Below, in pieces: positions 37-41,838 of a stretch of DNA of 41,950 nucleotides. The position numbers and the translations under genes were made by a program. This DNA comes from a virus (lineage: Duplodnaviria; Caudoviricetes), in IMG/VR virus record IMGVR_UViG_3300048853_000049, positions 1 to 41,950 of that record; one strand, written 5' to 3'. Position 1 is the stretch's first letter. Each line of letters begins with the position of its first letter. The notes beneath the pieces were generated by a model, which worked only from the letters and a program-made list of their open reading frames with translations, was not told the origin of the DNA and did no database searches.

Positions 37-126
37 GGAAGAGTGGCCGAGCGGTTTAAGGCACCGGTCTTGAAAACCGGCGTGCGTGAAAGCGCACCGT
101 GGGTTCGAATCCCACCTCTTCCGCCA
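37..126 (+). tRNA. tRNA-Ser (anticodon TGA), integration target
   Basis: GGAAGAG/CTCTTCC acceptor stem, anticodon arm CCGGT-CTTGAAA-ACCGG, long variable arm, GTTCGAATC T-loop, encoded CCA end. Confidence 0.97.
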
Positions 127-6344: not shown

Positions 6345-6354
6345 GCCATTCGCG

Positions 6355-7700: not shown

Positions 7701-7770
7701 AATCAATCGGTGGTCGAACTCCCCTGAATTGGGACGATGGTCGGCATGAATCTACGCGTGCAAGCCTCGG

Positions 7771-13005: not shown

Positions 13006-13818
13006 TCAGAGGACAAAGAAGCCCTTATCGAGCGTCATCACACTGTCGAGGTAAATCGACATGTCGGCAACTTTGTCGCCATTGATGTCGGCATAGATCT
13101 CGGTTCCATACCCAGTCTTCTCATAGCGAAGCTGCCCAGGCCGGCCTGTGAAGTCCAACTCGCCAATGAAGTCGAATGTGTTGTTTGTTCTCGTCGTGTT
13201 GTTGGAGTCTATCGCGGACAGATCGATCTTATCCCCAGCGGTGAAGCCATAGAAAACATCGCGCTCGTAGTCGTTTGCACGGGATTCCTTCACCGAATGA
13301 TAGATGAATGTATCGGTGCCAGAACCACCCGTTAGGAAGTCTTGGTCGCGTCCCCCGTGCAGAATGTCGTTTCCCCGCCCACCGATGAGTGTGTCCCTTC
13401 CAAAATTGCCCTTCAACACATCATTGCCGGCTTGTCCGTTGAAGGTGTCGGAGCCACTGCCGCCACTGAAGGTGTCATGCCCAGTGAGGGCTCGGGCGAT
13501 CAAGGCGGCGTCGTCGTCGATGCTGTAGGTTTCTGCTACCGCAACGATCGATGCTGCTGCGATTGACAATCCCGTGATACTCACCTCGACTCTTCCGTCG
13601 TAGGAGAGCGAATAGCTGGTCACCGTACCGGCGTTAGGAACCCCATCGCCGTCATAGCGAAACCCGCTGCCGCGGAACTCTTCCACCTCGCCCGTATCGT
13701 AACTCGCACGGAAAACCGATGAGTTGCGATAATACGATTCGGCGTAGTAGATGGTGCTAAAATCTGGATAACCGGAGTTGAAATTGTAGATGGAGTTAAT
13801 CGTTATGTTGGCGCCCAT
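13006..13818 (-). CDS. RTX/hemolysin-type calcium-binding protein with serralysin-like C-terminal domain
   Basis: Six tandem GGxGxD-type nonapeptides; GDKIDLSAID, FDFIG..DFTG..GQLRY, DINGDKVAD; no HExxH; GAGAGGG SD. Confidence 0.85.
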   Translation of the reverse strand: MGANITINSIYNFNSGYPDFSTIYYAESYYRNSSVFRASYDTGEVEEFRGSGFRYDGDGVPNAGTVTSYSLSYDGRVEVSITGLSIAAASIVAVAETYSIDDDAALIARALTGHDTFSGGSGSDTFNGQAGNDVLKGNFGRDTLIGGRGNDILHGGRDQDFLTGGSGTDTFIYHSVKESRANDYERDVFYGFTAGDKIDLSAIDSNNTTRTNNTFDFIGELDFTGRPGQLRYEKTGYGTEIYADINGDKVADMSIYLDSVMTLDKGFFVL

Positions 13819-14046
13819 AATACCCTCTCTTGTGGCCGCCACACCGATAACTCATTCTAGGGTTGTCTTCAATCCTGCACCTCATTTCCCCACGTGGAAT
13901 GGCTTCAACACGTCGATGCGGGAATTTCCAGTGTAGCGATTCTACAACTTCCCATCGGTGTAATTAAGCGGACACCAATTCAGGGGTAGCGTCAACGCTC
14001 CATTCGAGATAGGAGGCGAGCCGCGAAAATTCAGAGGTTTCCCACG

Positions 14047-24698: not shown

Positions 24699-25055
24699 CT
24701 ACGCTGCTTCTGGAATTGGCGCCTCCGGCTCCCCCACCGGCTCCTCAGGCGCTCCAAGGAGGCCGGCAGACAGAACGGCAATCGCATAGGGGTGGTTCTC
24801 GAGTGGTGGCCTCGCCTCGACGTAGGCGCGCACCTTTCTGAGCGCGGCGGCCGGCTCCATGCCGCCGCCGATTAGCCCTAGGCGGATAACGTTCGAGATA
24901 TCTTCAACGCGCCACTGGTGCGAATGCAGGCGATGCAGGACCACGTATGGCCCCGCATCTGTCTTTTCTTGGAGCTCTGCGAGTTGCCCCCAGCGGAGCG
25001 CAAAGCGGTATGTGCCGTCCGCCCAGTCTAGGTCAATCGCGGCGTCGCGGCCCAT
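24699..25055 (-). CDS. Tail assembly chaperone (gpG/GTA-gp10-like)
   Basis: WADG.YRFAL..GQLAELQE; IRLGLIGGGM; follows the tail tube gene. Confidence 0.8.
   Translation of the reverse strand: MGRDAAIDLDWADGTYRFALRWGQLAELQEKTDAGPYVVLHRLHSHQWRVEDISNVIRLGLIGGGMEPAAALRKVRAYVEARPPLENHPYAIAVLSAGLLGAPEEPVGEPEAPIPEAA
24729..24735 (-). other. Candidate -1 programmed frameshift site G-GGG-GAG
   Basis: A -1 shift continues GAGGANSRSSVDDLPNGKW into 24472-24693 with no stop. Confidence 0.6.
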
Positions 25056-25949: not shown

Positions 25950-26431
25950 TAGCCGCCTCCTGCTGCCACTTCTTTAGCGGATTTGTTGACGGCGCGAGTG
26001 ATGCGACTTTTGACGCGCTTGCGGTTGGCCCTGAAACTCACAAAGAAGAATGGCGATGCCGCGATTGCTGGTATCGTTGCACCAGCGAACATGCCGCCAG
26101 CAGTGTGCGCTGCCGTGCCGAATTCCACGAAGCGCGCGTAATAAGCGTCAGCGTTGCCGGCATAGATCGTGATCGTGTTCTCGCTGCCTGTATTGCGCAT
26201 GCCTTGGCCACGCACAGTAGCTATCGTCAGCGCGCCTTTGGGGGCGGTGCCCCAAGTCCAGTCAATGCTGTTTTTTAGGTCGCCGCTATCTGTCGGGACT
26301 AGCGCCCTCATCATGGCGACTATTTCGTCGGCACCTTGCTGCATCGCCTCGCGTATCCGCCTGCGCGCCGCTATCGGCAGAAGCGCAAGCTTCCTGTTGA
26401 GTCGATCGAGCCCAATAACCTTCGAACTCAT
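25949..26431 (-). CDS. HK97 gp10-family tail component
   Basis: VPTDSGDLKNSI; YARFVEFGT. Confidence 0.88.
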   Translation of the reverse strand: MSSKVIGLDRLNRKLALLPIAARRRIREAMQQGADEIVAMMRALVPTDSGDLKNSIDWTWGTAPKGALTIATVRGQGMRNTGSENTITIYAGNADAYYARFVEFGTAAHTAGGMFAGATIPAIAASPFFFVSFRANRKRVKSRITRAVNKSAKEVAAGGG

Positions 26432-26778
26432 GCCGCCGCCTGCGTGCCGATCGTCGCCATCACCTCGATGTAACGATTTTTCTGATCGGTATTCACTGGC
26501 GGAGAAGTAATGGCGTATTCGGCGCCAGATCGCGCGTCAACTGCGCGCCAGGCGGAGTCCACGGCGCGCGTGGCGACATGAGACCTCACGCGAATCGTAA
26601 CCGGTTGCAAGCCGTGCAAACGAGCGCCCATGACAGCCTCTGAGCCCATGCGCGGGATGATCTCGGCTGGATCTGTGAAGACGGTCGCGAAGTCTCCCAC
26701 AACCTCATTGCCGTATCCGTCATCACCGACGGTGCGCCGCTGAAAGTGCAGCAACGCGCGAAGCTTGCCTGCGGTCAT
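26428..26778 (-). CDS. Head closure / head-tail adaptor
   Basis: AGKLR...DDGYGN...GSEAV..ARL.G.QP..IRVR. Confidence 0.85.
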   Translation of the reverse strand: MTAGKLRALLHFQRRTVGDDGYGNEVVGDFATVFTDPAEIIPRMGSEAVMGARLHGLQPVTIRVRSHVATRAVDSAWRAVDARSGAEYAITSPPVNTDQKNRYIEVMATIGTQAAA

Positions 26779-26932
26779 TTGTCGGCCTTTCCGTGGGTTC
26801 AGCCCTGCCAGCCGCAATAGCTGCGGCCGCGCAAGCGCGCGTGACGTTCCGCACGACGCCCGCCTTGAAGGCGAGCGTAACAGGTGGCTTTGGCTTGAAG
26901 TCAAAGTCCGCCAAAAAGCGGACCCAAGCCAT
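26723..26932 (-). CDS. Small phage structural-region protein (MAWVRFLADFDF...)
   Basis: TAATG coupling to the upstream gene. Confidence 0.6.
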   Translation of the reverse strand: MAWVRFLADFDFKPKPPVTLAFKAGVVRNVTRACAAAAIAAGRAEPTERPTNDRRQASRVAALSAAHRR

Positions 26933-28138: not shown

Positions 28139-29404
28139 TTAGGCAGCAGCCGTGATGAGGTGCTTGATGGCGCCGGACTGGCCGATCTCGCCATCGAAGC
28201 GGATCAAACCAGCGATACCCATGTCTGGCCAAAAGCGCTCGCGCATCACACCAACGACAGGGGCGCCGACCTTGCGGACGTAAAACTTGCCAAGGTCGCC
28301 GAAGAGCATGACCTTCTTTGCGGCGGCAAGGGAGTCCATCGCTTGGTTGATGTGATAGCGACGGCCGTTGAACGAAGCCGGGATGCCCGCCTGCACGTTG
28401 CCCTGTTGCCAGAGATAATTCCCATCTCCGTCTTTCAATTTTCTGACGGCCTTCAGGGTGCCGTCATTGAACATGTAGCCCGCCTTCGGCGACTGGCGAT
28501 AGGCCGGGTCCACGGAGTGCTCGAGATCAATGATTTCATCCCAGGTGATTGCAGTCGTTGCCGCGGCAGTAACGCCAAGGGACGATCCGGTAACAATGCC
28601 GTTCGGTGCGCTTGAACCGGTGCCGGTCGTAAGCTGCAGGTTGGCAATGCGGGCCAGACGCTCGCCCAGCAGGTCGCCCAACAGGGCTTCCATGCTGAAG
28701 ATCGAGTCCATGTCGAGCTCCCACGACCACTTCACGAATTCCGTGTCGAAGGAATACGCGTCCAGAGACTTCTGCCCGAACGTGACATCCTTGCCGCCGT
28801 CATCGGTCAGTGCGGTGCCTTCGGTGTGAGCCCCGGCAGTGACGGCCGTGTCGTCAACGGTAGGCAGTTTGAGCGGATTGCCACTGCCCGTCGTGATGAC
28901 AGTGCACACGTCCGAGTTATACATCGGGCCCCAGGCCGCCATTGCCCGATCGATCTGGTTCATCAGTTCCGTCGGAACCGTGTAACCGCCGGCGCTGGCT
29001 GTGCCTGCAGTTTGAGCACGCGACTCAAATTTCGTCATGCCAGCCTTCAGGACCGCGCGCTCTTCGGCCTCGAGATCTGACGGATTGACACCACATACGA
29101 CCTTCGCGAAGACGTGGCGATATTCGAGCTTTCCACCCTCGTCGTCCTGGCCGCGGGCTTCGCCGTCGCCGCCGTTCGGGCGGTTACGTGCGCGCTCTTC
29201 GGCGGTACGACGCTCAATTTCGGCAAGTTTCTGCTCGCGTTCGATCAGCTTTTCGAGCTTGTCAAACTCAGCCATGATCGTGTCGTGGCGAGCATCGAGC
29301 TCGCCGGCGCGGGCCTCGTCTGTGTTGGCCTTGATCGCGTCGAGCGCTTCGCGGGCGTCGTGTACGAGCTTGCCGCGCTTTTCATTCAGTTCCTTGAGGG
29401 ACAT
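28139..29404 (-). CDS. HK97-family major capsid protein
   Basis: Coiled-coil delta domain; GGYTVP; LKDGDGNYLW; LFGDL; RFDG. Confidence 0.96.
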   Translation of the reverse strand: MSLKELNEKRGKLVHDAREALDAIKANTDEARAGELDARHDTIMAEFDKLEKLIEREQKLAEIERRTAEERARNRPNGGDGEARGQDDEGGKLEYRHVFAKVVCGVNPSDLEAEERAVLKAGMTKFESRAQTAGTASAGGYTVPTELMNQIDRAMAAWGPMYNSDVCTVITTGSGNPLKLPTVDDTAVTAGAHTEGTALTDDGGKDVTFGQKSLDAYSFDTEFVKWSWELDMDSIFSMEALLGDLLGERLARIANLQLTTGTGSSAPNGIVTGSSLGVTAAATTAITWDEIIDLEHSVDPAYRQSPKAGYMFNDGTLKAVRKLKDGDGNYLWQQGNVQAGIPASFNGRRYHINQAMDSLAAAKKVMLFGDLGKFYVRKVGAPVVGVMRERFWPDMGIAGLIRFDGEIGQSGAIKHLITAAA

Positions 29405-29493: not shown

Positions 29494-30102
29494 CTACGAA
29501 GCCGCCTGCCGGATGCCCCGAATTCGCTGTTCCATAGCCGCTCGCTTCTCGGCTACACGCCTGCTCGCGGCTGCTGCGTTGTGGGCGGCACCGCCTTCCG
29601 CCCTCGCCGCCTCAAGCGAGCGAAGGCCGATAGTGGTGTCTTCGTATGCAGGCCACGCCACCGCCGACACTTCGTGCAGTTCAAGTTTTTCGATGGTGCG
29701 GACAGGCGTCGCGCCGCTTTCATCCCAAGTTTCCTTGGTGACCCTAAAACCGAAACTCATCCCAGAAATGTCCTGTCTGGACACCAACTCCCACAGGTCG
29801 TTGCCATCACTTGTGTTCGGGACATCGATTTCCGCGAGCAGTCCGACCTCATCTTCCTGAAGGCGGAGCGTGCCGCTCTTCGTACGGCCAATCACGCGGC
29901 CGGGATCGTGATCGACCAGAGCTCGAATGTCGCCTTTGATGGCGTCCGCAAAAGCACCTGGGGCGATCTTCTCATCGAAGTAGCCGCCGATGCTCGCCAC
30001 ACGATCGAACTTTGCGGCATAACCGACCAGAGTTCGCTTTGCGCTATCCGCGCGAACCTCGACACCAAGGCCGCATGCGCGCTTTTCAATGTTGGTGGTC
30101 AT
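29494..30102 (-). CDS. HK97-family prohead protease
   Basis: GYAAKF, LVDHD, GMSFGF, LHEVSAV.WPAY. Confidence 0.95.
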   Translation of the reverse strand: MTTNIEKRACGLGVEVRADSAKRTLVGYAAKFDRVASIGGYFDEKIAPGAFADAIKGDIRALVDHDPGRVIGRTKSGTLRLQEDEVGLLAEIDVPNTSDGNDLWELVSRQDISGMSFGFRVTKETWDESGATPVRTIEKLELHEVSAVAWPAYEDTTIGLRSLEAARAEGGAAHNAAAASRRVAEKRAAMEQRIRGIRQAAS

Positions 30103-31367
30103 GCGGCGTCGGCCTCATCATCGGATTTGTTATCGTTGGCTGGCGGCTCTGGCGCTCCAGCCTTGTTCTGCTGCCCGTAAGTCGCCGTTCCGAGCGGCGC
30201 GGTTGCGCCCTGGAGGAACAGATCATCGCCATGCGGCTTTGCTTCCCTGTTTTCCAGAGCTCTGGCCTCATTGGGGGTCAGCAGCGCGTTCTGTACTGCC
30301 TTCGCCAGGCCATCCATGCGCGAAAGGAAATCGCCGCGCATCAATCCATCGAGAACGTGCGCAATGTAACGGTTGCCGCCGCTTCGGCCGAAGAACTTGA
30401 GATTTAGCTCATCTTCCAGAGCCTTTGCCCACTGGCCGATGAGATGCTGAACCAGCATGAGATTTTGCTGTTCGGTATTCGCCATCGTGCCATGCGTCAG
30501 ATCCTGCAGAAAAACAGGCGGCAACTGGTAGGATCTTGCGATTTCTTCCACTTGGAATCGGCGCGCTTCAACCATTTGCCCCTTGGCGGGATCCATGCCG
30601 ACGGGCTTCAGCTCGTTGCCGGGAGGGATGGGAAAAATCTGGCTGCTGCTGGATTTGGCCGCGCCTATCGCGCGTTTGATGTCCTCGTGCGCTCGCTTCA
30701 GCGCATCAGCCCCCTGCGGCAACGGACCAACCAGAGCGAGCGGAGGAACTCCTCCGCCTGAGAAAAAGTTGGAGCCGTAATCATTCATGGCAAGGGCAAG
30801 CTGTATAGCCTTCGAAGCCATGTTGATTGGGCCATAGTGCCTCAGACCGCAACTGCGGCGCATAAAGGGGACGTCGATGACATCGGCGGCATCGTATGTC
30901 TTGCCCTCAAACTCGTATGTGACCGTCAGGCCAACGCGTTTTATCGTGGTCTTGGCCGGGTCCATCGGCCAAAGCGAGTCGATACCCTGGGGAGTTCGCT
31001 CGATGTAAGCGAGGCCGCGGCCGCCAGTGAACACCTGCTGCCAAAACCATTGCCAAAACGCAAACGAGCCGAGCGCATCGTTAGGAGCGGCATTCACAAC
31101 CGTCTCGAGCTTGCCTCCGATGCGTTTTGCGCCACCCTTGCCGTCTCGGTAGGCGTGGCGCGGGAGGGCGGCAAGCGTTCGCGACAGGAAAGCAACCGCA
31201 GCCCAAACTGCTGGGACGCTCAGCGCACTGTCGATCGTGACAGCCGGCAGATTTGCAGATTGAATGCCGAAGTATGCGAGAAAGTTTTCAGCGCTGACTG
31301 GTATCGTCGGATTTTCGACATTTGAGCGCAATACAGGCGCATTCCTTCGTGTAAATGGCCATCGCAT
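30099..31367 (-). CDS. HK97-family portal protein
   Basis: PAVWAAV..LSRTLAALP; EEIAR.Y.LPP; LLTPNEAR..EN. Confidence 0.95.
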   Translation of the reverse strand: MRWPFTRRNAPVLRSNVENPTIPVSAENFLAYFGIQSANLPAVTIDSALSVPAVWAAVAFLSRTLAALPRHAYRDGKGGAKRIGGKLETVVNAAPNDALGSFAFWQWFWQQVFTGGRGLAYIERTPQGIDSLWPMDPAKTTIKRVGLTVTYEFEGKTYDAADVIDVPFMRRSCGLRHYGPINMASKAIQLALAMNDYGSNFFSGGGVPPLALVGPLPQGADALKRAHEDIKRAIGAAKSSSSQIFPIPPGNELKPVGMDPAKGQMVEARRFQVEEIARSYQLPPVFLQDLTHGTMANTEQQNLMLVQHLIGQWAKALEDELNLKFFGRSGGNRYIAHVLDGLMRGDFLSRMDGLAKAVQNALLTPNEARALENREAKPHGDDLFLQGATAPLGTATYGQQNKAGAPEPPANDNKSDDEADAA

Positions 31368-33239
31368 TCAGAATGCTCCCAAATCCGCTAGTGAAAATGA
31401 TGGATCGTCCCACGCCGACGTAGCCTGCGGGATCGCACCCGGGAGGCCATCTGCCGCGGCGCATGTCGCCATAGCGATCGTTACGAGCCCGTCGATGCGA
31501 CCACGAGAACGCTTCTTGTCAAAAGCGCGATTCCCCTGGCCGTCGGCATCGACGAGCGCGTTTCCGGCGCACATATACGTGACAGGCGAGGAGTCGATCG
31601 TGATCGACCGTTCCAAGATGCGATCCTCAAGGCGCTCAATCGCTCGCGGCATACAAAGCGCGCGGTCTTCGAACGAGACTCGTTTGCCTTGACCATGAGC
31701 CACAAGCTTGAGGCCCTGCCCTTCAGGTTTATCCGGGCCCTCGTACTTCCAGACGGGAAATCCGATTTGCTCGCATGCGCCGATAAAGTCAGCCATGCCT
31801 GCCGGGTCGAACGCGAGAAACTCAACGTCGTGCTCCGAGCAAAGCTCCTTGACCTCAGCGGCCACGAAAGTCTTGTCGATAACGGCACCAGGCACAGCGG
31901 TTAGATCCACTTCCGGATCCTCGGACCACTCGACATATTTTGCATTGTCGGAAAGAGATCGTTCAGCCAGGCCCTGCTTCGTGGTCCAGTACCAGGTCTT
32001 CGCGTAAAGGTGGCCGCGCTCGTCCGCCCATACTGCCGTGAGGGCAGTAAGGTCGTTCTTGTCGCTGAGATCGAGAGACAACCAGCATTTCCGGCCACGC
32101 TGCCTCTCGGAATCAACCCGCCCCTGAACGGCAGACCATGCATCTTCTGCGATCCAGAAATCGGCGGCCCCGATTGGGATACCGAAATAAAGGCGCTTGA
32201 CCGAAAAGGCCGTAGAGAGGAGCACGCGAGCCGTGTTGACTTCGCCGCGGATGTTCTCAACCGGAAAGGTCACGCCAAGAGCCGGCAGTGATTTCTTCCA
32301 AACGGCCTCATTGTCAAAGACCGTATCGCGATCAGCCTTGTCGACACGGCAAATAAAGGCGAACGCTTCGTCGTCGTGAACCTCGCCTGTCGCAACCTTC
32401 TGGTAGAATTCCGAATAGTCCGTGCCGACGATCTGGGTGGCCGCTGGCGTGTTGGTGCCCAACAGCATCAGGCCGTCGCCAGGCATTTTCGCAATTGCAC
32501 GCTTCCATGTCTCGATAGAGTCGTTGGTGCGGAATTCGTGAATTTCGTCCGCCGCGACCATTATCGGGCGCGGGCCGGAAATGGCCTGACCGTTTGCGAG
32601 GGACTGAAACTTGCCGCCGATCTCGGGGAACTCGATCTTCCAGGCGTTGTCGCCCTCGCCGCGGATGATCACATCGCCGCGTGATACGAGCGAATCCTCA
32701 TCGTCCTCTTCGCCGCCCGGGATGGGCGCCCGACACATTGCAACGGCGTCCTTGAAGAGGACGTTGGCCGTAGCTCGGTCTTGGCCGATCGAATACACCT
32801 CGGCGCGCTTCACGCCATACCAGCCACCCATGTATAGCCCGGTGGCGGCCATCCAAGGCGATTTCGCCTGGCCCTTACCAGTCTCCACCCAGGCTGAGCG
32901 GAAACGCATCCGACCACTATCCTTGCGCCAGCCGAACAGGCTTCCTGTGCAGAAAACCTGCCACGGCAGAAGGTTGAATGGCTTGCCTTCAGCAGCGCCG
33001 GCCGTGACCGAGAGAACGGCAGGCGGGAATTCGATCGCTCGAGCAGCGTCTTTCGGGCTCCAGTGGAGGCCGCGCTTCTGGCCCTCCCGCAGATCCTTCA
33101 AGTGCCGCTCTGCGGCCGCCATTTGGTGCTCGCCGGCAATGATCTTGCCAGCCAAAACATTCTGAGCGTACTGCGTGGTGGGGTCAGTCAGTTGCGGGCT
33201 TGAGGTACGCGTCGGCCGCGCGAGATTTCTTTTTGCCAC
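31368..33239 (-). CDS. terL: Terminase large subunit
   Basis: LLPWQ.F; Walker A GKGQAKS; Walker B VAADEIHE; LDLS..DLTA; RIDG.V. Confidence 0.95.
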   Translation of the reverse strand: MAKRNLARPTRTSSPQLTDPTTQYAQNVLAGKIIAGEHQMAAAERHLKDLREGQKRGLHWSPKDAARAIEFPPAVLSVTAGAAEGKPFNLLPWQVFCTGSLFGWRKDSGRMRFRSAWVETGKGQAKSPWMAATGLYMGGWYGVKRAEVYSIGQDRATANVLFKDAVAMCRAPIPGGEEDDEDSLVSRGDVIIRGEGDNAWKIEFPEIGGKFQSLANGQAISGPRPIMVAADEIHEFRTNDSIETWKRAIAKMPGDGLMLLGTNTPAATQIVGTDYSEFYQKVATGEVHDDEAFAFICRVDKADRDTVFDNEAVWKKSLPALGVTFPVENIRGEVNTARVLLSTAFSVKRLYFGIPIGAADFWIAEDAWSAVQGRVDSERQRGRKCWLSLDLSDKNDLTALTAVWADERGHLYAKTWYWTTKQGLAERSLSDNAKYVEWSEDPEVDLTAVPGAVIDKTFVAAEVKELCSEHDVEFLAFDPAGMADFIGACEQIGFPVWKYEGPDKPEGQGLKLVAHGQGKRVSFEDRALCMPRAIERLEDRILERSITIDSSPVTYMCAGNALVDADGQGNRAFDKKRSRGRIDGLVTIAMATCAAADGLPGAIPQATSAWDDPSFSLADLGAF

Positions 33240-33603
33240 GAGCCACCTTCGTTGCCTTGCCGCGGCTCAGCGGGTCTAGACCAAGCTTAGCCTCGAGAAC
33301 GACTATCCGAGCGTCGGCGTGCTGCATTGCAGACCAATACGGATTCCACTGCCCGATCTTGGCGCGCTTGTTGCCCGCCAGAATTGCGCCGTGCTCGGCG
33401 ACGTGCTTGGCGGCCTTCCAGTACTGCACCCTAAATTCAACGAGGCGCCGAACAGTGTGCCCGTTCGCGTCAGCGATAGTGCCGGCTGCGTGCAGATCTG
33501 CCATCACTGCAGTCCACTGCCGGCCTGCCTCCTCAGCATCACCGTGCTCAGGATACAGCCCGAACCAGTCTGGCTCGTCCAAATAAACATCCGACATGCT
33601 CAT
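33184..33603 (-). CDS. terS: Terminase small subunit (P27-like)
   Basis: EPDW; NPYW..M; LGLDPLSR; upstream of terL. Confidence 0.88.
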   Translation of the reverse strand: MSMSDVYLDEPDWFGLYPEHGDAEEAGRQWTAVMADLHAAGTIADANGHTVRRLVEFRVQYWKAAKHVAEHGAILAGNKRAKIGQWNPYWSAMQHADARIVVLEAKLGLDPLSRGKATKVARGKKKSRAADAYLKPATD

Positions 33604-33720
33604 CCCCTACGGGGATGGCGAACATCCCCCCTCTTCAAATTTGCTCGCAGTGCGTACGGAGGTGGGGCGCGGGTGCGGCGGCTGAACCGCCAGAGCTCGT
33701 CACCCACCCCCTCCGGCCCT
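33604..33720. other. Likely cos region (exact cut site not determinable)
   Basis: HNH-terS junction, where HK97-like phages carry cos; G-tracts present. Confidence 0.3.
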
Positions 33721-34032
33721 GTTCCATGGGTGTGCAGGGTCGATCGGTCGGCCGTCGATGTCGCAGCCGATGACATGACCACGCTTCTCCTCGCGCTGGA
33801 TAAGACCATCGTGGTGCGGCTGGCACACGCTCTCATGATTGTCGGGATCGATGAACAGTTCCCAATTTCCTCGATGAGGAGTGCGATGGTTCACGACCGT
33901 TGCTTCTGTGACGATCTCCGAGTGGAGACAGCGTTCACAAAGTGGTTGCCTCGATAGCTGCACGTGCCGCGCGTCTTGCCAGACCTTGAGGCCGTACCAG
34001 CGGTGGTAGGCCGATGGGGGCAGGTTCCACAC
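33700..34032 (-). CDS. Packaging-associated HNH endonuclease (HK97 gp74-like)
   Basis: QPLCERC..ATVVNH..PHRGN..LF..DN.ESVC..HH; start uncertain. Confidence 0.85.
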   Translation of the reverse strand: MWNLPPSAYHRWYGLKVWQDARHVQLSRQPLCERCLHSEIVTEATVVNHRTPHRGNWELFIDPDNHESVCQPHHDGLIQREEKRGHVIGCDIDGRPIDPAHPWNRAGGGG

Positions 34033-34055
34033 CGCAGCTACGCGATCTCTATACC

Positions 34056-34463
34056 TCAAGGTTGGACAGATGCTGTTCCGGGTCGAAGATTTACCCGCCT
34101 CAGACAGTTCACATCCTGAATGTGGAAGCCGCAACGGCGCGCACTCCTTTTTCGAACGTGCTCGACGAGAAAGTATGGATCACCGCGCCGTGAGCACTGC
34201 CTCGCTGCCCAACTATTCACGCGATAGCAGTCGACGAACTCCTGATGTTCATAGCCGGGGGTGTTGTCACATTCGAGTTGATGCTCCAATTCCCCCTCGC
34301 ATATCCTCCACGTGGTCGAAACAAAATAGCCGAACGGTATCTCAGTCACCCTAGTTGATCGAGCGACGGTAAGATTGTCCGAAGCAGCCCTTTGCTCCGG
34401 AGCGGGGCTGCAGGAAGCCACCAAGACAACTGTCAGAAATGCACCGAAGACACTGTTCCGCAC
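34056..34463 (-). CDS. Cys-rich putative lipoprotein moron
   Basis: GGGAGG SD before GTG 34463; lipobox VAS-C. Confidence 0.6.
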   Translation of the reverse strand: MRNSVFGAFLTVVLVASCSPAPEQRAASDNLTVARSTRVTEIPFGYFVSTTWRICEGELEHQLECDNTPGYEHQEFVDCYRVNSWAARQCSRRGDPYFLVEHVRKRSARRCGFHIQDVNCLRRVNLRPGTASVQP

Positions 34464-34958
34464 GATTTCCTCCCGCCCCAGCCAACTAAAACGGTTGAAA
34501 TATAGCACACCACACGCGAGCAGAAACGACACCACTTTGGGTTAATTGGCTGAGTTCAAAACGACCAGATTCAGAAGCGGCCAGCTCAACCCATTACAGG
34601 GAGCCGGCCGCGCGATCGCCTCGTCGCGAGAGGAGGAGCGCGCCGAAGCAATAGTGATTGGGGCAGTCCCGGCGATCCTCGCGAGGTTGAACGTCCGCGG
34701 TTCGGCAGCGCCCCAAATGGGGTAAGGCCGCTCCGTGGCGGCCTTTTGAAAGCTGTATGATTGTTACCGGATGAAACAGATAATTGCTGCGCACCAGATG
34801 CGCGGTTGCCATCCGTGGCGCAGCTCGCAAGCTTCTACAGTGCTGAAGCTGCGAAACACAATATGTAGGGAGAACGTTAGAAGAACTAACGCCATATATT
34901 GCGATAATACCGATTCTATGACTTAATGTCGCCGTCCAACGTTTGACGGGATACGGCA

Positions 34959-35300
34959 ATGAAGGAAGAAGTTCGCAGATCGATTGCGCATGCTGCTGTT
35001 GCGCGCAGTGGTGGTCGGCCGAATGGCAACATTTATAGCTACGAGGCTGCCCGTAATACGGCTTTCTCTAGCAATGGCGCTGGCGGCGGATATGACTATG
35101 ACGCCGACGCTCACGTGTCAGCCGATGGAGGTGGATTTTATCACTACGGCGTGGGTGCTCGTGTCCAGCTCAGCATCAGCGGTCGAAATTTTAACGGCTA
35201 CGATTATGATAGTGGAAATCACTTCACGGGCAGTGTGAACGGCAACAGTGTCCAGATCTACGACTATGGTGAAGGCCGTTACTTCAACTACACCGTTTAA
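34959..35300 (+). CDS. Gly/Tyr/Asn-rich beta-repeat hypothetical protein
   Basis: Repeated YSY/YDY/YHY/YDY/YDY units; hairpin right after the stop. Confidence 0.75.
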   Translation: MKEEVRRSIAHAAVARSGGRPNGNIYSYEAARNTAFSSNGAGGGYDYDADAHVSADGGGFYHYGVGARVQLSISGRNFNGYDYDSGNHFTGSVNGNSVQIYDYGEGRYFNYTV

Positions 35301-35336
35301 AAGAAAGCCCTCCTGTCCGAAAACAAGAGGGCTTTC
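35297..35336. terminator. Terminator between convergent genes
   Basis: GAAAGCCCTC...GAGGGCTTTC stem; T-run follows on the minus strand. Confidence 0.75.
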
Positions 35337-35339
35337 GCA

Positions 35340-35450
35340 TCACAGTCCGCGAAGAAACGCGAAAATTGAAGCCATGCTGATCTTAAGATCAAACTTCAAT
35401 CGAAACGACTTCGTCGACTGACTGGCTTCGAGAAGCAAAGAAGCGTTCAT
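35340..35450 (-). CDS. 36-aa peptide MNASLLLEASQSTKSFRLKFDLKISMASIFAFLRGL, not in the track
   Basis: TAGGAG SD 6 nt before ATG; stop immediately followed by the terminator. Confidence 0.6.
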   Translation of the reverse strand: MNASLLLEASQSTKSFRLKFDLKISMASIFAFLRGL

Positions 35451-35586
35451 ACGCAACTCCTATTCTCTGCGTGGAAGCCCTTGTGGAGCCGCGACCCACG
35501 CGCCAGACTTTGATTGAGGGAATTTCCTGTTTAATAACAGCCCTGGAGGCCCCCCTCAAGCACGCGGCTGTTCCGAGCTGACACTA

Positions 35587-35615
35587 CACATAGTTGTCCG
35601 GCTTCCATCGCGCAA
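35587..35615 (-). promoter_or_regulatory. Candidate late promoter
   Basis: TTGCGC-N17-TATGTG just downstream of the putative late regulator. Confidence 0.35.
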
Positions 35616-35631
35616 GAGCTGCCGAATTCCT

Positions 35632-36465
35632 TTACGCGACGAGATCCTTGACGTCGTCGTAGGTGATCGGACCTGCGCGATCACGGATCACCGACAAGGC
35701 TAAATGGACAACCGACCGGCCAACTGCCATAGCCGATCGTGAACTGGTTGCTTTGGCCAACATTCCCACCCGCTCTAGTGTAGCGCCATGTAGAGCCGCT
35801 GCCTCGAACGGCTCGACTAGCGGTCCTAGCAGTGCCCGGAGCTCCTGTAGCAGTGGGACAGCGTCGATCTTCGCAATCACGTGACCGTCCCCGCCCCACC
35901 TGGTCGGTACGGCCGATGGCAAGGGCTTCGTGCGGCACCACTTCAACGGATCGCTAGCCTTCGCGCTCCACGGCAGCGCATCCTTCTTCTTCGTGCCCTT
36001 GGCGCCTTTCCGCATCGCCTTGCCTGTTTTCTCGTCGATCCACAAGTCCTGCTCGACTTGCAGCGGCTCCAAGCCCACCGCATTACCGACAAGCTGGGCT
36101 TCACTGCTGACTGCGGCCTCTAGTCGGCGGTAGAGCAGCAGAGCGGGCAACAAATCGTGGTTCCCATCAGCTAGAAGTGCCTTGATGATCGGTAGCGACG
36201 GATTGTCGTTGTCTGCCTTGCCGTCCCAGTCTTTGCCGATCTTCATCCTTATCGCCAGTCTCGCCCGCTCCTTATGTATCGCTAGTTTCTCGGCCTTCCG
36301 CTTCGCCTCAACTTCATCCTTGTCGAGCCTAGCTTGTGACGACTCCGGCCAGAATGTGTCTCCAACCCACTCCCCGCGAAATGCCATGCGCGGTTTATTG
36401 TCGTTGGCTGCTGTTCTGCTCAAGACACGGTTCTCCTTCTCCTCGATAAGGTCATTTGCTTTCAT
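35632..36465 (-). CDS. Putative late-gene regulator (Q/sigma-R4-like position)
   Basis: Last early gene; C-terminal helical HTH-like segment; ATGA coupling; function inferred from position. Confidence 0.6.
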   Translation of the reverse strand: MKANDLIEEKENRVLSRTAANDNKPRMAFRGEWVGDTFWPESSQARLDKDEVEAKRKAEKLAIHKERARLAIRMKIGKDWDGKADNDNPSLPIIKALLADGNHDLLPALLLYRRLEAAVSSEAQLVGNAVGLEPLQVEQDLWIDEKTGKAMRKGAKGTKKKDALPWSAKASDPLKWCRTKPLPSAVPTRWGGDGHVIAKIDAVPLLQELRALLGPLVEPFEAAALHGATLERVGMLAKATSSRSAMAVGRSVVHLALSVIRDRAGPITYDDVKDLVA

Positions 36466-36815
36466 GCTGCCGTCCACTTCGGCTTCGGGTCGGGAATGGC
36501 GCGGATATCTTCTGACGCTTGATTGGGCACGCCTGCTGGGAATTCCATCAGGAGCGCGGCTTTCTCGCGAGCAAGGCAGAAGGAGGCCAGGCGAGCCTCC
36601 TCAGCCACGGTTCGCGTCACGCACAGCGACAAGGCGTATTCCTTTTCGCAGTGTGCCTTGTCGCAGGCGGCCTCCAGTTCTTTGATTTTCCCCTGCAGTA
36701 TCTCGATGGTTCGGTGCGCATCGACGAGCAGTCGACGATAGTGTTCCCCGCGGCGTCGGTGGTCTCGCGGCGCGATCATGTCGGCCGTTTGGATTGATGA
36801 AGTTGCCGAGAGCAA
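36462..36815 (-). CDS. Coiled-coil hypothetical protein
   Basis: AAGGAGG SD before TTG 36815. Confidence 0.65.
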   Translation of the reverse strand: MLSATSSIQTADMIAPRDHRRRGEHYRRLLVDAHRTIEILQGKIKELEAACDKAHCEKEYALSLCVTRTVAEEARLASFCLAREKAALLMEFPAGVPNQASEDIRAIPDPKPKWTAA

Positions 36816-36843
36816 GTTGGTCCTCCTTTTCCTGCGTGATGTG

Positions 36844-37133
36844 TCGTGCGGTCGTGCGCCCTATGGGAATATGTCCGCACGCACGATGATGGGGACTGAT
36901 GTCCCCCCATCGTTCGGGTGTGTTTTTGATCGAGAAATCGTGCGCCCGCACGCCTTTGTTTTTGCTACCTAATCTTCTGTTTTTTCACAGATCGTGCGGG
37001 GCATTCGTGCGCTTGCACGATTACCGCACGACGGCGTCAATCTTCATCGTCGTCGTGCGCGCGCGAAACTTGCTTGCGCACGATCCTGGCGGCCGATTGT
37101 GCGGCCTGCGTTTCGCGGTGGCGCTCCGCACGA
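36844..37133. repeat. TCGTGCG iteron cluster, putative replication origin
   Basis: 10 exact copies in both orientations around a T-rich tract (36955-36990), at the helicase 3' end. Confidence 0.75.
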
Positions 37134-38221
37134 ATGTCCGTGAGAGCGTCGAAACCAGCCGGAGTTATTATCCAGCGGCGCCCCTCATATTTCAGCAACT
37201 TCGATGTCTTCAATTTGTCCGTGGCGCGCCGCGCCCGGTCTTTATGAACGCCGCCGTCTTCACGTCGCCAGCCCAATGCCTCGGCGATGTCGGAGAGTGA
37301 CTGGCCGGCATTGCGTTCAATCTGCAGCAGCACGCCGTCTTCATCCCGACGCTGCGCCGCGGCCCGTGACCGGGCTTCCCCGCTGGAAAGAGCCTGTGCC
37401 ATGACGGTCGGAATTGGCCGACCTTTGCTGTCGACCAAGGCGGGCGCTGTGATCGTCTTCAGTTCGATGATGAGCGGGTCGAAGTCGGGGCCACGATGCT
37501 TTCCTTGCCAGTGGAGCTTGATAGTGCCGTCCGACTTCGCCAGGGTTAAATTTCCATCCACCTCCGCAATGAAGGCGCCGCCGCCTCGCGGAAGTAGATT
37601 GTCGGATCCTGCGTTTTTCGTGGGATGGCATGCAACCATCACGCACGGGCGGCCCGGTAGCGTAGTGAGCATCCGCAGGTCGCGCGCGTGCTTGCCAAGC
37701 TCGGTGTTCCCATTTTCGTCTGTGCCATGGAAGTAGGCAGCCGACGTGTCCACGACGACGAGATCGGCACCTCCCAGTGCTTCGACCTGAGTTCGGATGG
37801 CCGCCAAGGCATCGGGAACGCTGAAGCGATCTTTGATGAAATGCACATCAATATCGTCGAGACTGAAGCCGGTTTCATGGGCCATGCCAATCCACCGCAT
37901 GGTCACGTCGTCTGGGTTCTCGCCTGCAAAGTACACGACGCGACCTTTGGCAACCTCTCTGTCCGACATGAATCCGCCCTGAGCCGTCAAGGAGGAAATC
38001 AGCAGGAGAACGGCCGTCTTTCCGGTGCCGGTCGCAGCCGTCATCGAGTAGATGAAGCCCTTCTGCGCAACGCCGTCGACGTGGTAGTCGGGCGGAACAA
38101 AGCCGCGAACGAGCTCGGCGCTCGAGATGATTTTGATCAGTCTATTGTCATTTGCGGCGTCAAGCTTGCGCAGTGGGCCGCCTGGCTCGCTCTTCTTTTC
38201 GATCTTCGGGATAGCCGCCAT
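37037..38221 (-). CDS. AAA_25/RepA-family replicative helicase with C-terminal winged helix
   Basis: Walker A AATGTGKT; YFAGEN; Walker B LVVVDT; HPTK..PRGGGA; SLSDIAEALGW. Confidence 0.88.
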   Translation of the reverse strand: MAAIPKIEKKSEPGGPLRKLDAANDNRLIKIISSAELVRGFVPPDYHVDGVAQKGFIYSMTAATGTGKTAVLLLISSLTAQGGFMSDREVAKGRVVYFAGENPDDVTMRWIGMAHETGFSLDDIDVHFIKDRFSVPDALAAIRTQVEALGGADLVVVDTSAAYFHGTDENGNTELGKHARDLRMLTTLPGRPCVMVACHPTKNAGSDNLLPRGGGAFIAEVDGNLTLAKSDGTIKLHWQGKHRGPDFDPLIIELKTITAPALVDSKGRPIPTVMAQALSSGEARSRAAAQRRDEDGVLLQIERNAGQSLSDIAEALGWRREDGGVHKDRARRATDKLKTSKLLKYEGRRWIITPAGFDALTDIRAERHRETQAAQSAARIVRKQVSRAHDDDED

Positions 38222-39039
38222 TATGCAGCCTCCACGTAGTCGGCAAAATCCTTACCGGGCTCTGCAGGCATGGTCAGAGTGACCTCACGCCCTGCCGCAT
38301 GCCACCGTTCACCGACGGCATTCGCAGCGTCGATTCCAGCTCGATCGTGGTCAGCAAACACGGTCAGGGACTGCACGCCATCGATAATGGGGAAACCCTT
38401 CATAATTGACGAAGACAGGCAGGCCCAGATTGGCGCACGGTGTGTCGCCAACGCTGTTTCGATCCCTTCTGCGATAGCAAGATCGGTGAGCGACTCGCTG
38501 TCGTGCAGGCGCACGCATCCGCCCGATGCTCGCCCATGCATGAGGCGTCCCGCCTTCCGGCCCTCGGCGTCAAGTAGGGTTTCGTGATAGCCGCACGGTT
38601 CGCCGCTAACCGCGTCCGTAATGATGGCGATGAGCGCACGGCTCGCTGGTCGATAGCGCCAGCCGTCGCCGCTGTATGAAAGGCCACGAGATGCGAGGTA
38701 GCGCTCTCCCAAAGTGCCGGCAATCGGGACGCAGGAGTCCCACAGGCGCTTCAGCATTCGGATGCGTGCGACCGTGCTGCCGGAAGAAACCGCAACCGCT
38801 GCCGGCGCAATTATTCGTTGCGGGCTGTCGTCATGGAGTCCAAGGCGAGTTTTGACATGGTCCCGGCAATCGCGGAAGTCATCCCCAGCGAAGCTATTCG
38901 TGAGGAAAGAGCCATCCGGAAGAAAGGTGACGCTTAGCGACCTGTCGCGCTTGCTGTGACCTGGGCCGGGACAAATGATCTTGTTGCCGCGAGCTTCTCC
39001 GCCGAGGAGGCGTGCGGCAGTTTTAATGTCGATGTTCAT
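38221..39039 (-). CDS. Toprim-domain primase (Zn-binding N-terminus)
   Basis: CPGPGHS.RDRSLSV; YLASRGL; AEGIETAL; FADHD.AG; DFAD. Confidence 0.88.
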   Translation of the reverse strand: MNIDIKTAARLLGGEARGNKIICPGPGHSKRDRSLSVTFLPDGSFLTNSFAGDDFRDCRDHVKTRLGLHDDSPQRIIAPAAVAVSSGSTVARIRMLKRLWDSCVPIAGTLGERYLASRGLSYSGDGWRYRPASRALIAIITDAVSGEPCGYHETLLDAEGRKAGRLMHGRASGGCVRLHDSESLTDLAIAEGIETALATHRAPIWACLSSSIMKGFPIIDGVQSLTVFADHDRAGIDAANAVGERWHAAGREVTLTMPAEPGKDFADYVEAA

Positions 39040-39286
39040 TGGCAGTCAGGCCCCCCAACGCGGCCGTCGCTGCGGCCGTTATCTTTTCTGCTGTTTCCGG
39101 ATGGAACGTCGCGACGTGTCGCCCTGCTGCGTTCGGAGCAATCGTTCTCCGCCGTCCGTCAGCGAACTCGCGAAGCAGAAGGCCGAATAATCGAACGTGA
39201 CCGAGCTCGACATCAAAGTGAGCAACGGTTCTGCGACCGACGCCCAGTGGCGCCGGTCGTATGGAGAGGATGATCGGCTCCATCAC
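39023..39286 (-). CDS. Small hypothetical protein, possibly SpoVG-like nucleic-acid binding
   Basis: AHFDVELG.VRLFGL.L beta pattern; coupled to both neighbours. Confidence 0.6.
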   Translation of the reverse strand: MMEPIILSIRPAPLGVGRRTVAHFDVELGHVRLFGLLLREFADGRRRTIAPNAAGRHVATFHPETAEKITAAATAALGGLTANEHRH

Positions 39287-39639
39287 TGGCCGTTTGCCTG
39301 CCGTTCAATTTTTTCGATGACGGCTTGCCACACGAACTCCGCCGTTCGATGGTCCGCGAAGAACGCGTCGCCGACGTATCGAAGGAGGCCGGACTTGGGC
39401 GGCGTCCCTTCCGCCCAGTATTCAACGAACCCAAAGCGGCGCCGGTCGCCTTTCGCGCCCTCCGTCAGGACCGCCTTTTCAGGAAACAGTGCGGGCGAGT
39501 GGTCAAGCAGGCGAGCGTCGTGGGGATAGCCGTCGAGCGTATCTATGGCCAAGCCGAATCCGCGGACCCGGCTGGGGGCCGCCGCTTCGCGTTCTCGGAT
39601 CAATCGAAACGCGCGGGGTTCGTGGGTGAATGTGCGCAA
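39283..39639 (-). CDS. Hypothetical protein
   Basis: GAGGAGG SD before TTG 39639. Confidence 0.6.
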   Translation of the reverse strand: MRTFTHEPRAFRLIREREAAAPSRVRGFGLAIDTLDGYPHDARLLDHSPALFPEKAVLTEGAKGDRRRFGFVEYWAEGTPPKSGLLRYVGDAFFADHRTAEFVWQAVIEKIERQANGQ

Positions 39640-39732
39640 GAATCCTCCTCTCGCCGGCGCATGGGCCGGTCGGCTCTGTTGTCTGTGTGGTGGTGTTTTA
39701 GATAACCGGCGAACGCCGGCTGGCGACAAGGG

Positions 39733-39936
39733 TCAGGCAGCGCGAGCGGCAATTCTGCCGCCGATCCAGTCGTGCACTTCGGAGCGCACGAAAGCGATCC
39801 GCTTCTCGCCCAGGGCTACGGCGGCGGGAAAGCGTCCTTCGGCGCGTAGACGGTGGATCATTGTCTTTGACATACTCGTGAGTTGGCACGTGTCCCTGAG
39901 TGAAATCAGGGCGTAGTTGTCATTCGCTGGGTCCAT
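39733..39936 (-). CDS. alpA: AlpA-family regulator / recombination directionality factor
   Basis: LTSMSKTMIHRL...GRFP..V.LG..RIAFVRSEV.DWI; GAGGAG SD. Confidence 0.92.
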   Translation of the reverse strand: MDPANDNYALISLRDTCQLTSMSKTMIHRLRAEGRFPAAVALGEKRIAFVRSEVHDWIGGRIAARAA

Positions 39937-40021: not shown

Positions 40022-40534
40022 ATGAAAGAAAAGCGGACGCGACTGGCGCAGATGGTGGTGAATGAGCACAATAGGAGCGGATTGACCGAACGCGAGCTCG
40101 CGTCCAAGTACGGCTTTAGCCAGCAGGCGCTTCAGACATGGAAGAAGGGTGCTGTACCCCGGCCAGTAATGTACCCTGCCCTCGCTGCCTACCTGGGGAT
40201 ATCCGTCGACCAAATTGCTGAACTTGCTGAAGAAGCAAAGATCAGCACTGGCACGACGAAGTTACCGAACCTCGGCGCACCTGTGATGGGATCCGGCACC
40301 AATAACGCCATCAGGATAGACCAATTCGCTAGCGGATATGCGCTTCCGGCAGTTGGTGGGACCTATGCCGTCCGGGTCGACGGAAAGACGATGTGGGTGA
40401 ACCCGCGCCTCGCCCCGCGCGGGGGCAACACGGTGCTTGTCCGAAGTGAAGGGTCTGCGCGCCTTGCGACTTGGCCGTGCAAATTAGCTGACGGCGAGGA
40501 AGTTCACGTTGTCTCCTTGGCGGAGTTGGTCTGA
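40022..40534 (+). CDS. XRE/CI-like repressor with degenerate S24-like C-terminus
   Basis: GLTERELASKYGFSQQALQTWKKG.VPR..LAAYLGIS; divergent from alpA; no SD. Confidence 0.8.
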   Translation: MKEKRTRLAQMVVNEHNRSGLTERELASKYGFSQQALQTWKKGAVPRPVMYPALAAYLGISVDQIAELAEEAKISTGTTKLPNLGAPVMGSGTNNAIRIDQFASGYALPAVGGTYAVRVDGKTMWVNPRLAPRGGNTVLVRSEGSARLATWPCKLADGEEVHVVSLAELV

Positions 40535-41697
40535 GCAGCATCGCGACCAATGTACTTGGCCCAATCATTCATGAGCGATCGGCGCTTCTCCAGCGCAGAT
40601 CCGCGTCGATAAGCTTGCTCAACCTCGTTTCCGACCGCGTGAGCAAGCGCCGCTTCGGCAACCTCCCGCGGATACTCTGTGCAATCTCCTGCCCAGTCAC
40701 GAAACATGCTTCGCAGGCCGTGGAGAGTCGCGGCCTTGTCAGGCGAAGCCAGTCGCAGAGCCTTCGTCATCGCAGTACTGGAAACCGGTTTCCCCCCGCC
40801 AAACATATAAGGGCCGGTCGCCTGCTGGCGCATAATTTCCACGATTGCAAGGGCACGGTCGCAAAGCGGGACAATATGCTCCTTCCCAGCCTTCATGCGC
40901 TCCGCCGGCACCGTCCAGATCTTCGCCTCAAGGTCGACCTCAGAAAATAGCGCTTCCCTGCCCTCGCGCGTACGGGTGGCGGTAAGTGTTAAAAACTCAA
41001 CAGCGCGGGCGGCTGTACCGGACGACTCCTTCAGCTTGGCGATCATCTGAGGCGCCTGCACGTAGGCGAGCGCGGCGTGGTGCCCTCGCTGGAGTTTCTG
41101 TCGGCGAGGCATCACCTTGTCGAGCAACCCTTTCCAGCGGGCTGGGTTACCCGCTGTGCGCCACTCGTGAGCGATTGCGTAATCAATCACAGCCTGGATC
41201 CGCGACCGCAGCCTATCGGCCGTCTCTGGCCTCTCGTGCCAATGCGGCAGAAGGCAGTCCTTGACGTCGCCCATGACGATATCCGCCACAGGCATATCGT
41301 GCAGCGGCTTTGCGTACTCCCGCAGAGTCATCCTCCACTGGTCGGCGTGTTTATCGTTCGTCCATTCGGATTCCTTCGTTTCGATTAAGGCGTCCATGCA
41401 ATCCTTGAACGTCTTCGGCTTGATTGAAATGCGATCAGCGCGCGGATCATCGCCACGAGCGAGCTGCTGCCGAATCACCTCCGCCTTCTCTCGGGCGAGA
41501 GCCACGGACACAGGAGCCGTACCCTGACCATACCCGCCAAGGCCGATTTCGTTTCGCTTCTCGCCGCGGCGGTATATAAAAACCCAATTCTTGCTGCCGC
41601 CCTTCTGGACCCGCAGATAAAGGCCCTCCCCGTCACCGTAGATGCCAGGCTTTGTGAGCGCCTTTATCCTTGTTTCTGACAGCTTGTTGCGCGCCAT
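40504..41697 (-). CDS. int: P4-family tyrosine integrase
   Basis: GDGEGLYL..WVFIY..GLG arm-binding domain; TATRTRE, RMKAG.EH.VPL, HGLRSMFRDW, LAH, AY.R; GGAGA SD before ATG 41697. Confidence 0.96.
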   Translation of the reverse strand: MARNKLSETRIKALTKPGIYGDGEGLYLRVQKGGSKNWVFIYRRGEKRNEIGLGGYGQGTAPVSVALAREKAEVIRQQLARGDDPRADRISIKPKTFKDCMDALIETKESEWTNDKHADQWRMTLREYAKPLHDMPVADIVMGDVKDCLLPHWHERPETADRLRSRIQAVIDYAIAHEWRTAGNPARWKGLLDKVMPRRQKLQRGHHAALAYVQAPQMIAKLKESSGTAARAVEFLTLTATRTREGREALFSEVDLEAKIWTVPAERMKAGKEHIVPLCDRALAIVEIMRQQATGPYMFGGGKPVSSTAMTKALRLASPDKAATLHGLRSMFRDWAGDCTEYPREVAEAALAHAVGNEVEQAYRRGSALEKRRSLMNDWAKYIGRDAAQTNSAKETT

Positions 41698-41823
41698 GAA
41701 AGTCTCCGCCGAACCTGCATTTTTGTAACGCTTATCATAACGTCCAAACGGAACATATGGAATTTGTGAGAAACAACAGCTAGATGCGGACCGAATGTTC
41801 CAAGAAAACGGCGGAGGAGCGGA

Positions 41824-41838
41824 CACCTCTTCCGCCAT
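41824..41838 (+). repeat. att core, integrase-side copy CACCTCTTCCGCCAT
   Basis: Exact match to 113-127. Confidence 0.93.

Follow-up and report, generated by a model that had tools for sequence, protein, structure and literature searches.

A motif matching the head of the host ssrA tag recurs in unrelated proteins of a temperate phage lineage and may dock on the adaptor SspB

Why would unrelated proteins of one phage carry the first residues of a tag that belongs to the ribosome-rescue system of the host? The question is raised by the virus record IMGVR_UViG_3300048853_000049, analysed here over its whole length of 41,950 bases (58.6% G+C; the window), which is a complete temperate phage genome with head genes of the HK97 type by Pfam and PHROG matches. 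Four of its proteins, an AlpA-family excisionase/regulator, an AAA_25 helicase, a putative late transcription regulator and an HK97-type portal protein, contain the tetrapeptide ANDN. The host is probably a rhizobium, because the portal relatives that have names came from Rhizobium, Mesorhizobium, Shinella, Agrobacterium and related genera; the nearest isolated phages by portal were RHph_Y3_1 (81%) and 16-3 (73%).

An initial annotation of the window had located five sites in these four proteins, one of them in the form ADNDN, and all five were found where it had placed them, in frame on the minus strand (Table 1). A six-frame scan of the window gave no ANDN beyond the four ANDN sites, each of which follows Ala or Pro. 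When 48 hand-picked window proteins (11,347 residues) were shuffled, each within itself, ANDN appeared 0.11 times on average, and none of 3000 shuffles reached the four copies observed. A C-terminal Ala-Ala (AA) was found in eight of the same 48 proteins against 0.72 expected. Among the four carriers, only the portal protein combines the head with AA at a tag-like distance, its mimic being 13 residues long against 11-13 in host tags. AlpA ends in ARAA, 64 residues from its ANDN, and it has ANDNYA, the six residues with which the Rhizobium/Mesorhizobium tag ANDNYAEARLAA starts. The regulator ends in LVA, and the helicase has the acidic end HDDDED. Six more window proteins end in AA and lack NDN (7401-7706, 24699-25055, 26428-26904, 28139-29404, 36462-36815 and 38221-39039), the primase and the major capsid protein among them.

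The description of the sites as lying in unstructured terminal segments held in part. In AlphaFold2 models, the predicted local distance difference test (pLDDT) score was below 50 at helicase residues 19-25, covering most of the motif at 23-26, and at regulator residues 15-28 and 78-88, which include both motifs, so the motifs of these two proteins probably sit in disordered segments; the second regulator site, at residues 86-88 of 277, is internal. The label of the regulator itself is plausible but unproven. It had no Pfam or PHROG match, and the likeness of its C-terminal part to sigma region 4 by modelled fold was weak, at Z 5-6 (best 8x6g_H, Z 6.2, root-mean-square deviation 4.4, 82 aligned; 3vep_D, Z 5.8, deviation 3.4, 67 aligned); none of the fold matches reached Z 8, and Foldseek gave no match at E <= 0.001.

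The motif was then counted in 80 portal-centred viral loci together with the window (1.47 Mb, six frames). ANDN occurred 278 times, while each of its 11 permutations occurred 3-24 times. With identical 12-residue contexts collapsed, it was the top-ranking tetrapeptide, at 201 against 2.2 expected, and it ranked first again (86 against 1.35 expected) in a second set of 37 prophage loci from named genomes, which overlaps the first in part. The loci were fetched with six seeds, one of which overlapped the portal motif; this can inflate the counts for the portal and not those for other families. The 290 ANDN proteins formed 27 BLAST families; among their representatives are primase-helicases, excisionases, HNH nucleases, DNA methylases, a replication initiator, the tape measure and the portal. 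ANDN was absent from the relatives of the major capsid protein (0/92), prohead protease (0/91), large terminase (0/96) and major tail protein (0/25). AA ends, which close 55 of the 96 large terminase relatives, were found in 14-16% of the proteins of this phage group against 2-8% in control sets.

Viral contigs were also scanned, with no seed, for ANDN followed by AA and a stop codon, and for the control ADNN; the figures are samples of listed matches and not rates. Among the matches listed, 107/123 for ANDN were in frame and 58/123 closed open frames of at least 50 codons; for ADNN the corresponding figures were 27/120 and 6/120. In a 5.9-Mb host genome, the 29 ANDN-coding matches comprised five in a 21-kb prophage locus, one in the tmRNA (transfer-messenger RNA) gene and 23 elsewhere; of 22 inspected among the latter, nine lay in long plausible open reading frames (ORFs), three of these on small replicons. 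Across five genomes, ANDN preceded by Ala or Pro ([AP]ANDN) gave 61 matches against 15 for [AP]ADNN, and in Agrobacterium pusense 17 of 22 such matches fell within one 54-kb stretch that holds a prophage. The enrichment is strong both over the null and over host DNA, and the motif of these phage proteins is real and strong.

Outside the phages, [AP]ANDN was seen inside ParB-like and large helicase/methylase-like proteins, so named by inspection, on small replicons of two host genomes (L141:1497-3506; L142:510-2561 and 3162-6488; L777; L782), and the motif may extend to proteins of plasmids or integrative and conjugative elements. A host ECF-sigma-like protein (L127:1557-2213) has AAANDN in an apparent interdomain linker and is a candidate native SspB client.

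Is it the peptide or the DNA that is kept? The initial annotation had noted variable codons at the window sites (GCG/GCA/GCC, AAT/AAC, GAC/GAT), and this variation was found as described. Across 253 distinct ANDN contexts, 28 of the 32 codon combinations were used, and codon choice was near the context-matched background (GAC 84% against 73%, GCC 53% against 47%). GCA, the codon in four of five host tags, appeared in only 51 of the 253 contexts. The residue before ANDN was Ala or Pro in 219 of the 253, whereas the DNA before the tmRNA resume codon reads Val in four of five host genes and Ser in one. The first Ala of a genuine tag is supplied by charged tmRNA (PMC4131195; this and the other papers given by PMC number are cited from the parts of their text available to us). 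With Ala or Pro in front of ANDN, the phage therefore appears to imitate the finished tagged protein. In the viral-contig scan, again among the matches listed, Ala or Pro preceded ANDN in 37/55 long-ORF matches against 5/52 short-frame matches, many of which were tmRNA genes. Of 377 six-frame matches, 339 lay inside called genes; the 38 others were for the most part visibly in frame in genes that the caller had missed.

These results bear on the possibility of an element at the DNA or RNA level, such as captured tmRNA or a small repeat, and on that of an accident of linker composition. The codon skew is mild but present, and tmRNA genes do occur on viral contigs, ARAGORN having called them at 33/123 and 37/120 of the loci listed, several at 33-45% G+C, where they may be phage genes or host flanks. 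Set against this are the codon diversity, the scarcity of GCA, flanks unlike tmRNA DNA, the low counts of the permutations and the frame dependence. ARAGORN and Rfam gave only a tRNA-Ser in the window and no tmRNA gene; among 119 phage loci there was one doubtful ARAGORN tmRNA call. Such an origin is therefore very improbable and is largely refuted, captured tmRNA DNA and a coding repeat both being rejected on codon combinations, unmatched flanks and frame dependence. Codon diversity, flanks and frame together bear out the proposal of selection on the peptide, and by sequence comparison ANDN is conserved as a copy of the tag peptide and not of tmRNA DNA.

The arrangement of the copies within proteins differs. 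In 103 contexts ANDN lies within 20 residues of the end, and 78 of these end in AA, against a baseline of 163/1583 for proteins lacking ANDN; the spacing from ANDN to the end peaks in this terminal class at 12-13, as in host tags. Portal relatives carry ANDN in 96 of 116 cases, 90 of the 96 ending in AA, and the middle part of the portal tails is 40% acidic. Leu at position -3 was found in none of 66 distinct AA-ending mimic tails and in all five host tags. Since LAA closes no mimic tail, these tails are, on their own, probably weak degrons that depend on the adaptor.

More than half of the copies (150/253) are internal or N-terminal, and an AA end closes 47 of the 126 proteins whose ANDN is non-terminal. 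In AlpA homologues, NDN was found in all 15 with a recovered N-terminus, four times as ANDN, and 13 of 17 end in AA. The regulator family has NDN in 34 of 36 members, two or more copies in 23 and an AA end in 31. Its second site reads AANDN or ADNDN in relatives; of 35 aligned sequences, at least 90% retain N86, D87 and N88. Compared across families, the conserved core of the motif is NDN. The carriers fall into three classes, namely terminal mimics, split signals, in which an N-terminal or internal NDN stands far from the AA end (AlpA and the regulator), and proteins with docking only (helicase and tape measure). In the window, the primase and helicase are separate genes (37037-39039, minus strand), while many helicase homologues are 550-690 residues long and are probably fusions; in either form ANDN directly precedes the ATPase domain.

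The proposal that the motif is the head of the host tmRNA tag was borne out in all five host tags compared, which begin with ANDN: ANDNYAEARLAA in three genomes, ANDNNAKEYALAA and ANDNEALALAA. The adaptor SspB was present in all five hosts of related prophages, four of which have it no more than about 3 kb from ssrA, and every one of 81 Rhizobiales genomes has it as well. By tblastn, neither the window nor the 119 phage loci gave an SspB homologue.

The docking idea was examined for the portal tail by structure prediction. When a Pararhizobium SspB dimer was modelled with the 32 C-terminal residues of the portal, the complex scored 0.65, against 0.03 for the best of three controls; 116 of 157 solved complexes reached the mark for this score, as did 2 of 215 mismatched pairs. 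Runs shared at least 55% of their contacts, and partner pLDDT was at least 54. The contacts with the lowest predicted error place P-A-N-D on SspB residues 64-67 and 86-88, mostly invariant columns, and overall the contacts cluster on P-A-N-D and on stretches 64-72 and 86-90 of SspB, where many residues are invariant. The model supports docking as a prediction; it shows likeness, not binding. Taking all readings of its function together, SspB is probably the partner of the motif.

The motif is limited to certain phage lineages as judged by sequence. In a quick portal tree (83 distinct rows from loci of 15 kb or more, trimmed of their last 45 residues and midpoint-rooted for drawing only), it characterises one large group, in which single losses are scattered; a 9-row sister group, with Sphingobium, Paracoccus and Pseudaminobacter prophages among its members, lacks it. 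ANDN occurred elsewhere in the locus in 74 of 78 loci with a portal ANDN against 11 of 19 without, the loci being non-independent. Among 24 named phages, Sinorhizobium meliloti phage 16-3 had 18 ANDN-coding matches in 60 kb, Bradyrhizobium phage BDU-MI-1 five, and RHph_Y3_1 and phiLM21 two each; seven had one and twelve none, and Atu_ph07 had three in 490 kb against five for the control. Single copies in long tape-measure-like ORFs were seen by inspection in Azospirillum phage Cd, a Sphingobium genome and phiLM21 (L725, L778 and L720), the first two lying outside rhizobia.

A trait of all temperate rhizobial phages was rejected, since no copy was found in PBC5, phiM5, RR1-B, Lo5R7ANS, POA1180 or RcapNL and one in PPF1, all of which we take to be temperate. 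A pan-alphaproteobacterial trait was rejected as well: ANDN was absent from 20 of 20 other alphaproteobacterial portal regions, the top-scoring ones of 106 genomes with a match among 301; some of these regions may be gene transfer agents. The suggestion that phage motifs follow the host tag in general was not supported. In 80 HK97-like and 80 D3-like loci, ANDE, ANDD and ANDN were at or below expectation, a narrow test of gammaproteobacterial phages because the sets are near-identical relatives (portal identity 96-100% and 70-100%). Within alphaproteobacteria it was not supported either, with the 20 portal regions lacking ANDN and most named rhizobial phages tested being at background.

A scan for ANDE followed by AA and a stop codon gave 23/120 listed matches that close open frames of at least 50 codons, between ADNN and ANDN, and 37 ANDE loci among the matches listed were tmRNA genes. 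Ends of the form ANDE-x(4-10)-AA were seen, in other phages, in a portal protein (L289:1-1548), two Cro-like proteins and one other (L838:8693-9040, L839:14587-14835, L274:1009-1539), and a few ANDE tails are possibly mimics of ANDE-type tags. The same scan led to a provirus (G391:C1:1-40000; L834/L835) with AND 14 times in 40 kb against 3-6 for permutations. About ten of its early proteins carry AND followed by a free fourth residue (AND-x), often with an AA end. Its DUF1376 family (P0157, P0161-P0279) has AND-x tails in 38 of 120 members and ANDN in none, and AA ends in 34 of the 38 against 48 of the other 82. The phage family probably has a Caulobacterales host, a weak assignment from two named homologues and the best phage hit; its DUF1376 protein had no match in 401 alphaproteobacterial genomes.

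Another possibility is that NDN has a reader other than SspB, for instance a different host protease or adaptor, a sensor of defence or a factor of the phage, and that its likeness to the tag head is secondary. The core differs by lineage, being xNDN in rhizobial AlpA and AND-x, never ANDN, in the 38 tails, and this although the Caulobacter tag, AANDNFAEEFAVAA, contains ANDN (PMC9393093); the trait is also patchy though SspB is in all Rhizobiales sampled. However, the tag is matched in Ala or Pro at -1, in the AA end and in the spacing, the complex model places the motif on SspB, and no SspB homologue turned up in the 119 phage loci or the window. We regard a different reader as quite unlikely.

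Our preferred reading, which we hold to be moderately probable, is that the motif is an SspB handle that gives adaptor-dependent ClpXP turnover to the terminal mimics and the split signals. The gene-encoded (A/P)-A-N-D-N copy of the tag head likely binds the host SspB, and carriers that also end in Ala-Ala or similar small residues would be tethered by it to ClpXP. In E. coli, terminal Ala-Ala is necessary and not sufficient for degradation (PMC10862746), and weak tails are made degradable by SspB (PMC9382460); by analogy, tails lacking LAA may act like the engineered DAS+4 tag and require SspB. Turnover of this kind would remove residual excisionase, late regulator, nucleases and methylases as well as portal left unassembled, and may thereby steady lysogeny or keep stoichiometry. 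The helicase and tape measure would dock on SspB with no C-terminal degron and be engaged elsewhere or escape degradation.

Several observations weigh against turnover as the function. The main one is the helicase class: among the best 120 of 2006 homologues, 105 keep NDN in a variable linker before the ATPase domain, and only six end in AA, acidic ends being frequent. Because helicases keep NDN without the AA end, SspB docking is not always a degron, and this class argues against a pure turnover model and favours a handle, shield or sink. Tape-measure relatives likewise have ANDN in 10 of 34 and AA ends in 0 of 30. Nine of 17 families with C-terminal ANDN mostly end in AA, and in one family only 6 of 25 do. 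Counts across relatives are phylogenetically non-independent. After ANDN stands mostly Lys, Asn or Gln, whereas most rhizobial and Caulobacter tags have Tyr or Phe, and therefore affinity for SspB may be low. The complex model used our own alignments, with ANDN-bearing tails only in that of the tail, and its score may reflect memory of the solved SspB-alpha structures 2qas, 2qaz and 2nys, one of which presumably holds the tag peptide. Finally, hosts with the same tag have many phages lacking the motif, and therefore it is not needed for temperate life.

SspB stops ClpAP from recognising the ssrA tag. The motif may bind SspB with a main effect other than destruction: oligomeric carriers, meaning the hexameric helicase and the dodecameric portal, would soak up the adaptor, gain shielding by it from other proteases or recruit ClpX as a remodeller. 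The helicase linkers with acidic ends, the two or more copies in most regulator family members and the tails lacking LAA would fit, as would the scarcity of SspB in E. coli, put at 176 and 356 dimers per cell by two estimates, few enough to be saturated (PMC9382460). A sink would, however, be expected in the most abundant proteins, yet capsid, protease and major tail proteins have no copy, and a decoy has no need for an ANDN-to-AA spacing that copies the whole tag. We judge this alternative unlikely, though worth keeping in view.

Turnover and docking could also act together, an idea that we offer as tentative. The phage lineage would have made the ribosome-rescue adaptor a proteome-wide control hub through one motif gained in dozens of unrelated proteins, with two modes: on proteins that end in AA, a weak SspB-gated degron; on the helicase and tape measure, a handle or sink for SspB/ClpX that does not lead to degradation. 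Carriers piling up at induction would saturate SspB and stabilise each other, and the resulting proteolytic queue would act as a switch from lysogeny to lysis or back. In other alphaproteobacterial phage lineages a version of their own, AND-x, would have evolved.

The tRNA-Ser(TGA) at the left end is the probable prophage attachment site, because the integrase sits at the other end (Table 1). An ATP-dependent DNA ligase (PF01068, PF04679; 6355-7706, minus strand) lies in the prophage accessory region with a small Cys-containing ORF upstream. Between the tail fibre and lysis genes, a 278-residue protein (13006-13842, minus strand) has RTX calcium-binding repeats and a serralysin-type C-terminal domain, with no protease domain match in Pfam. 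The endolysin ORF (11695-12246, minus strand, and 12302-12751) has a PHROG endolysin match and no Pfam match; it ends abruptly at 183 residues and may be frameshifted. In a DUF6998 ORF (4984-5562, plus strand), the frame appears to shift past about residue 120.

Table 1. Motif sites, their carriers and the end features of the window
Feature	Coordinates	Strand	Evidence or remark
tRNA-Ser(TGA)	37..126	+	ARAGORN + Rfam; left end
HK97-type portal protein, 422 aa	30099..31367	-	PF04860, E 1.2e-77
Full tag mimic closing portal	30099..30143	-	P-ANDN-KSDDEAD-AA-stop; 13 residues from ANDN to end
Portal ANDN codons	30129..30140	-	in-frame site
Putative late transcription regulator, 277 aa from ATG at 36465	35632..36477	-	sigma-4-like C-terminal domain, weak
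Regulator second motif ADNDN, NDN = residues 86-88	36202..36216	-	in-frame site
Regulator first motif ANDN, residues 20-23	36397..36408	-	in-frame site
AAA_25 helicase, 394 aa	37037..38221	-	PF13481
Helicase ANDN codons, residues 23-26, N-terminal linker	38144..38155	-	in-frame site
AlpA-family excisionase/regulator, 67 aa	39733..39936	-	PF05930, E 6.7e-13
AlpA ANDN codons, residues 4-7	39916..39927	-	in-frame site
Tyrosine integrase	40504..41838	-	phrog_1, PF00589; right end

Beyond tagged nascent chains, very few natural clients of SspB are known, the table of one review naming ssrA-tagged proteins and RseA (PMC8138137). If the SspB reading is true, these phages would add dozens, evolution would have defined a minimal SspB-alpha motif (an NDN core with Ala or Pro before it), and a virus would have connected a large part of its regulatory and DNA-handling proteins with a single scarce adaptor of the host. 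The classical model phage 16-3 carries 18 ANDN-coding sites, which makes the reading directly testable. The motif may also help in recognising phages of this group, and it offers degrons for rhizobia that can be tuned. Full-text literature searches found no description of the motif in phages, a provisional result with primary SspB-alpha papers and supplements outside its scope, and the available parts of the tmRNA website papers (PMC4131195, PMC4383926) do not mention it.

Of the known systems, the ssrA tag/SspB-alpha/ClpXP pathway of Alphaproteobacteria is the closest, with a shared head, the AA end and 12-13 spacing of the terminal class, and the adaptor in the hosts. Unlike the ssrA tag, the phage motif is encoded in ORFs with their own stop codons and is not added by trans-translation; its copies are mostly internal or N-terminal and lack LAA, and the middle is variable and often acidic. 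It would work like the SspB-binding half of an ssrA tag, yet it is not an ssrA tag. Interference with the tmRNA/SspB pathway recalls Pseudomonas phage pf16 gp18, a phage SspB (PMC5587285), and phage tmRNA (PMC4131195); this phage has neither gene and would supply the ligand, not the machinery. Lambda O and MuA are likewise phage replication or recombination proteins turned over by host ClpXP, but these and native ssrA-like C-terminal motifs are single-protein degrons read directly by ClpX, and the available text describes no adaptor motif shared across a phage proteome (PMC8138137). E. coli RseA(1-108) and the engineered DAS+4 resemble the phage carriers in joining an SspB-binding element to a separate weak C-terminal ClpX signal (PMC8138137, PMC9382460). 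RseA, however, has no copy of the tag head and needs cleavage (PMC8138137), and DAS+4 is synthetic, whereas here a natural virus repeats the tag head in 27 protein families.

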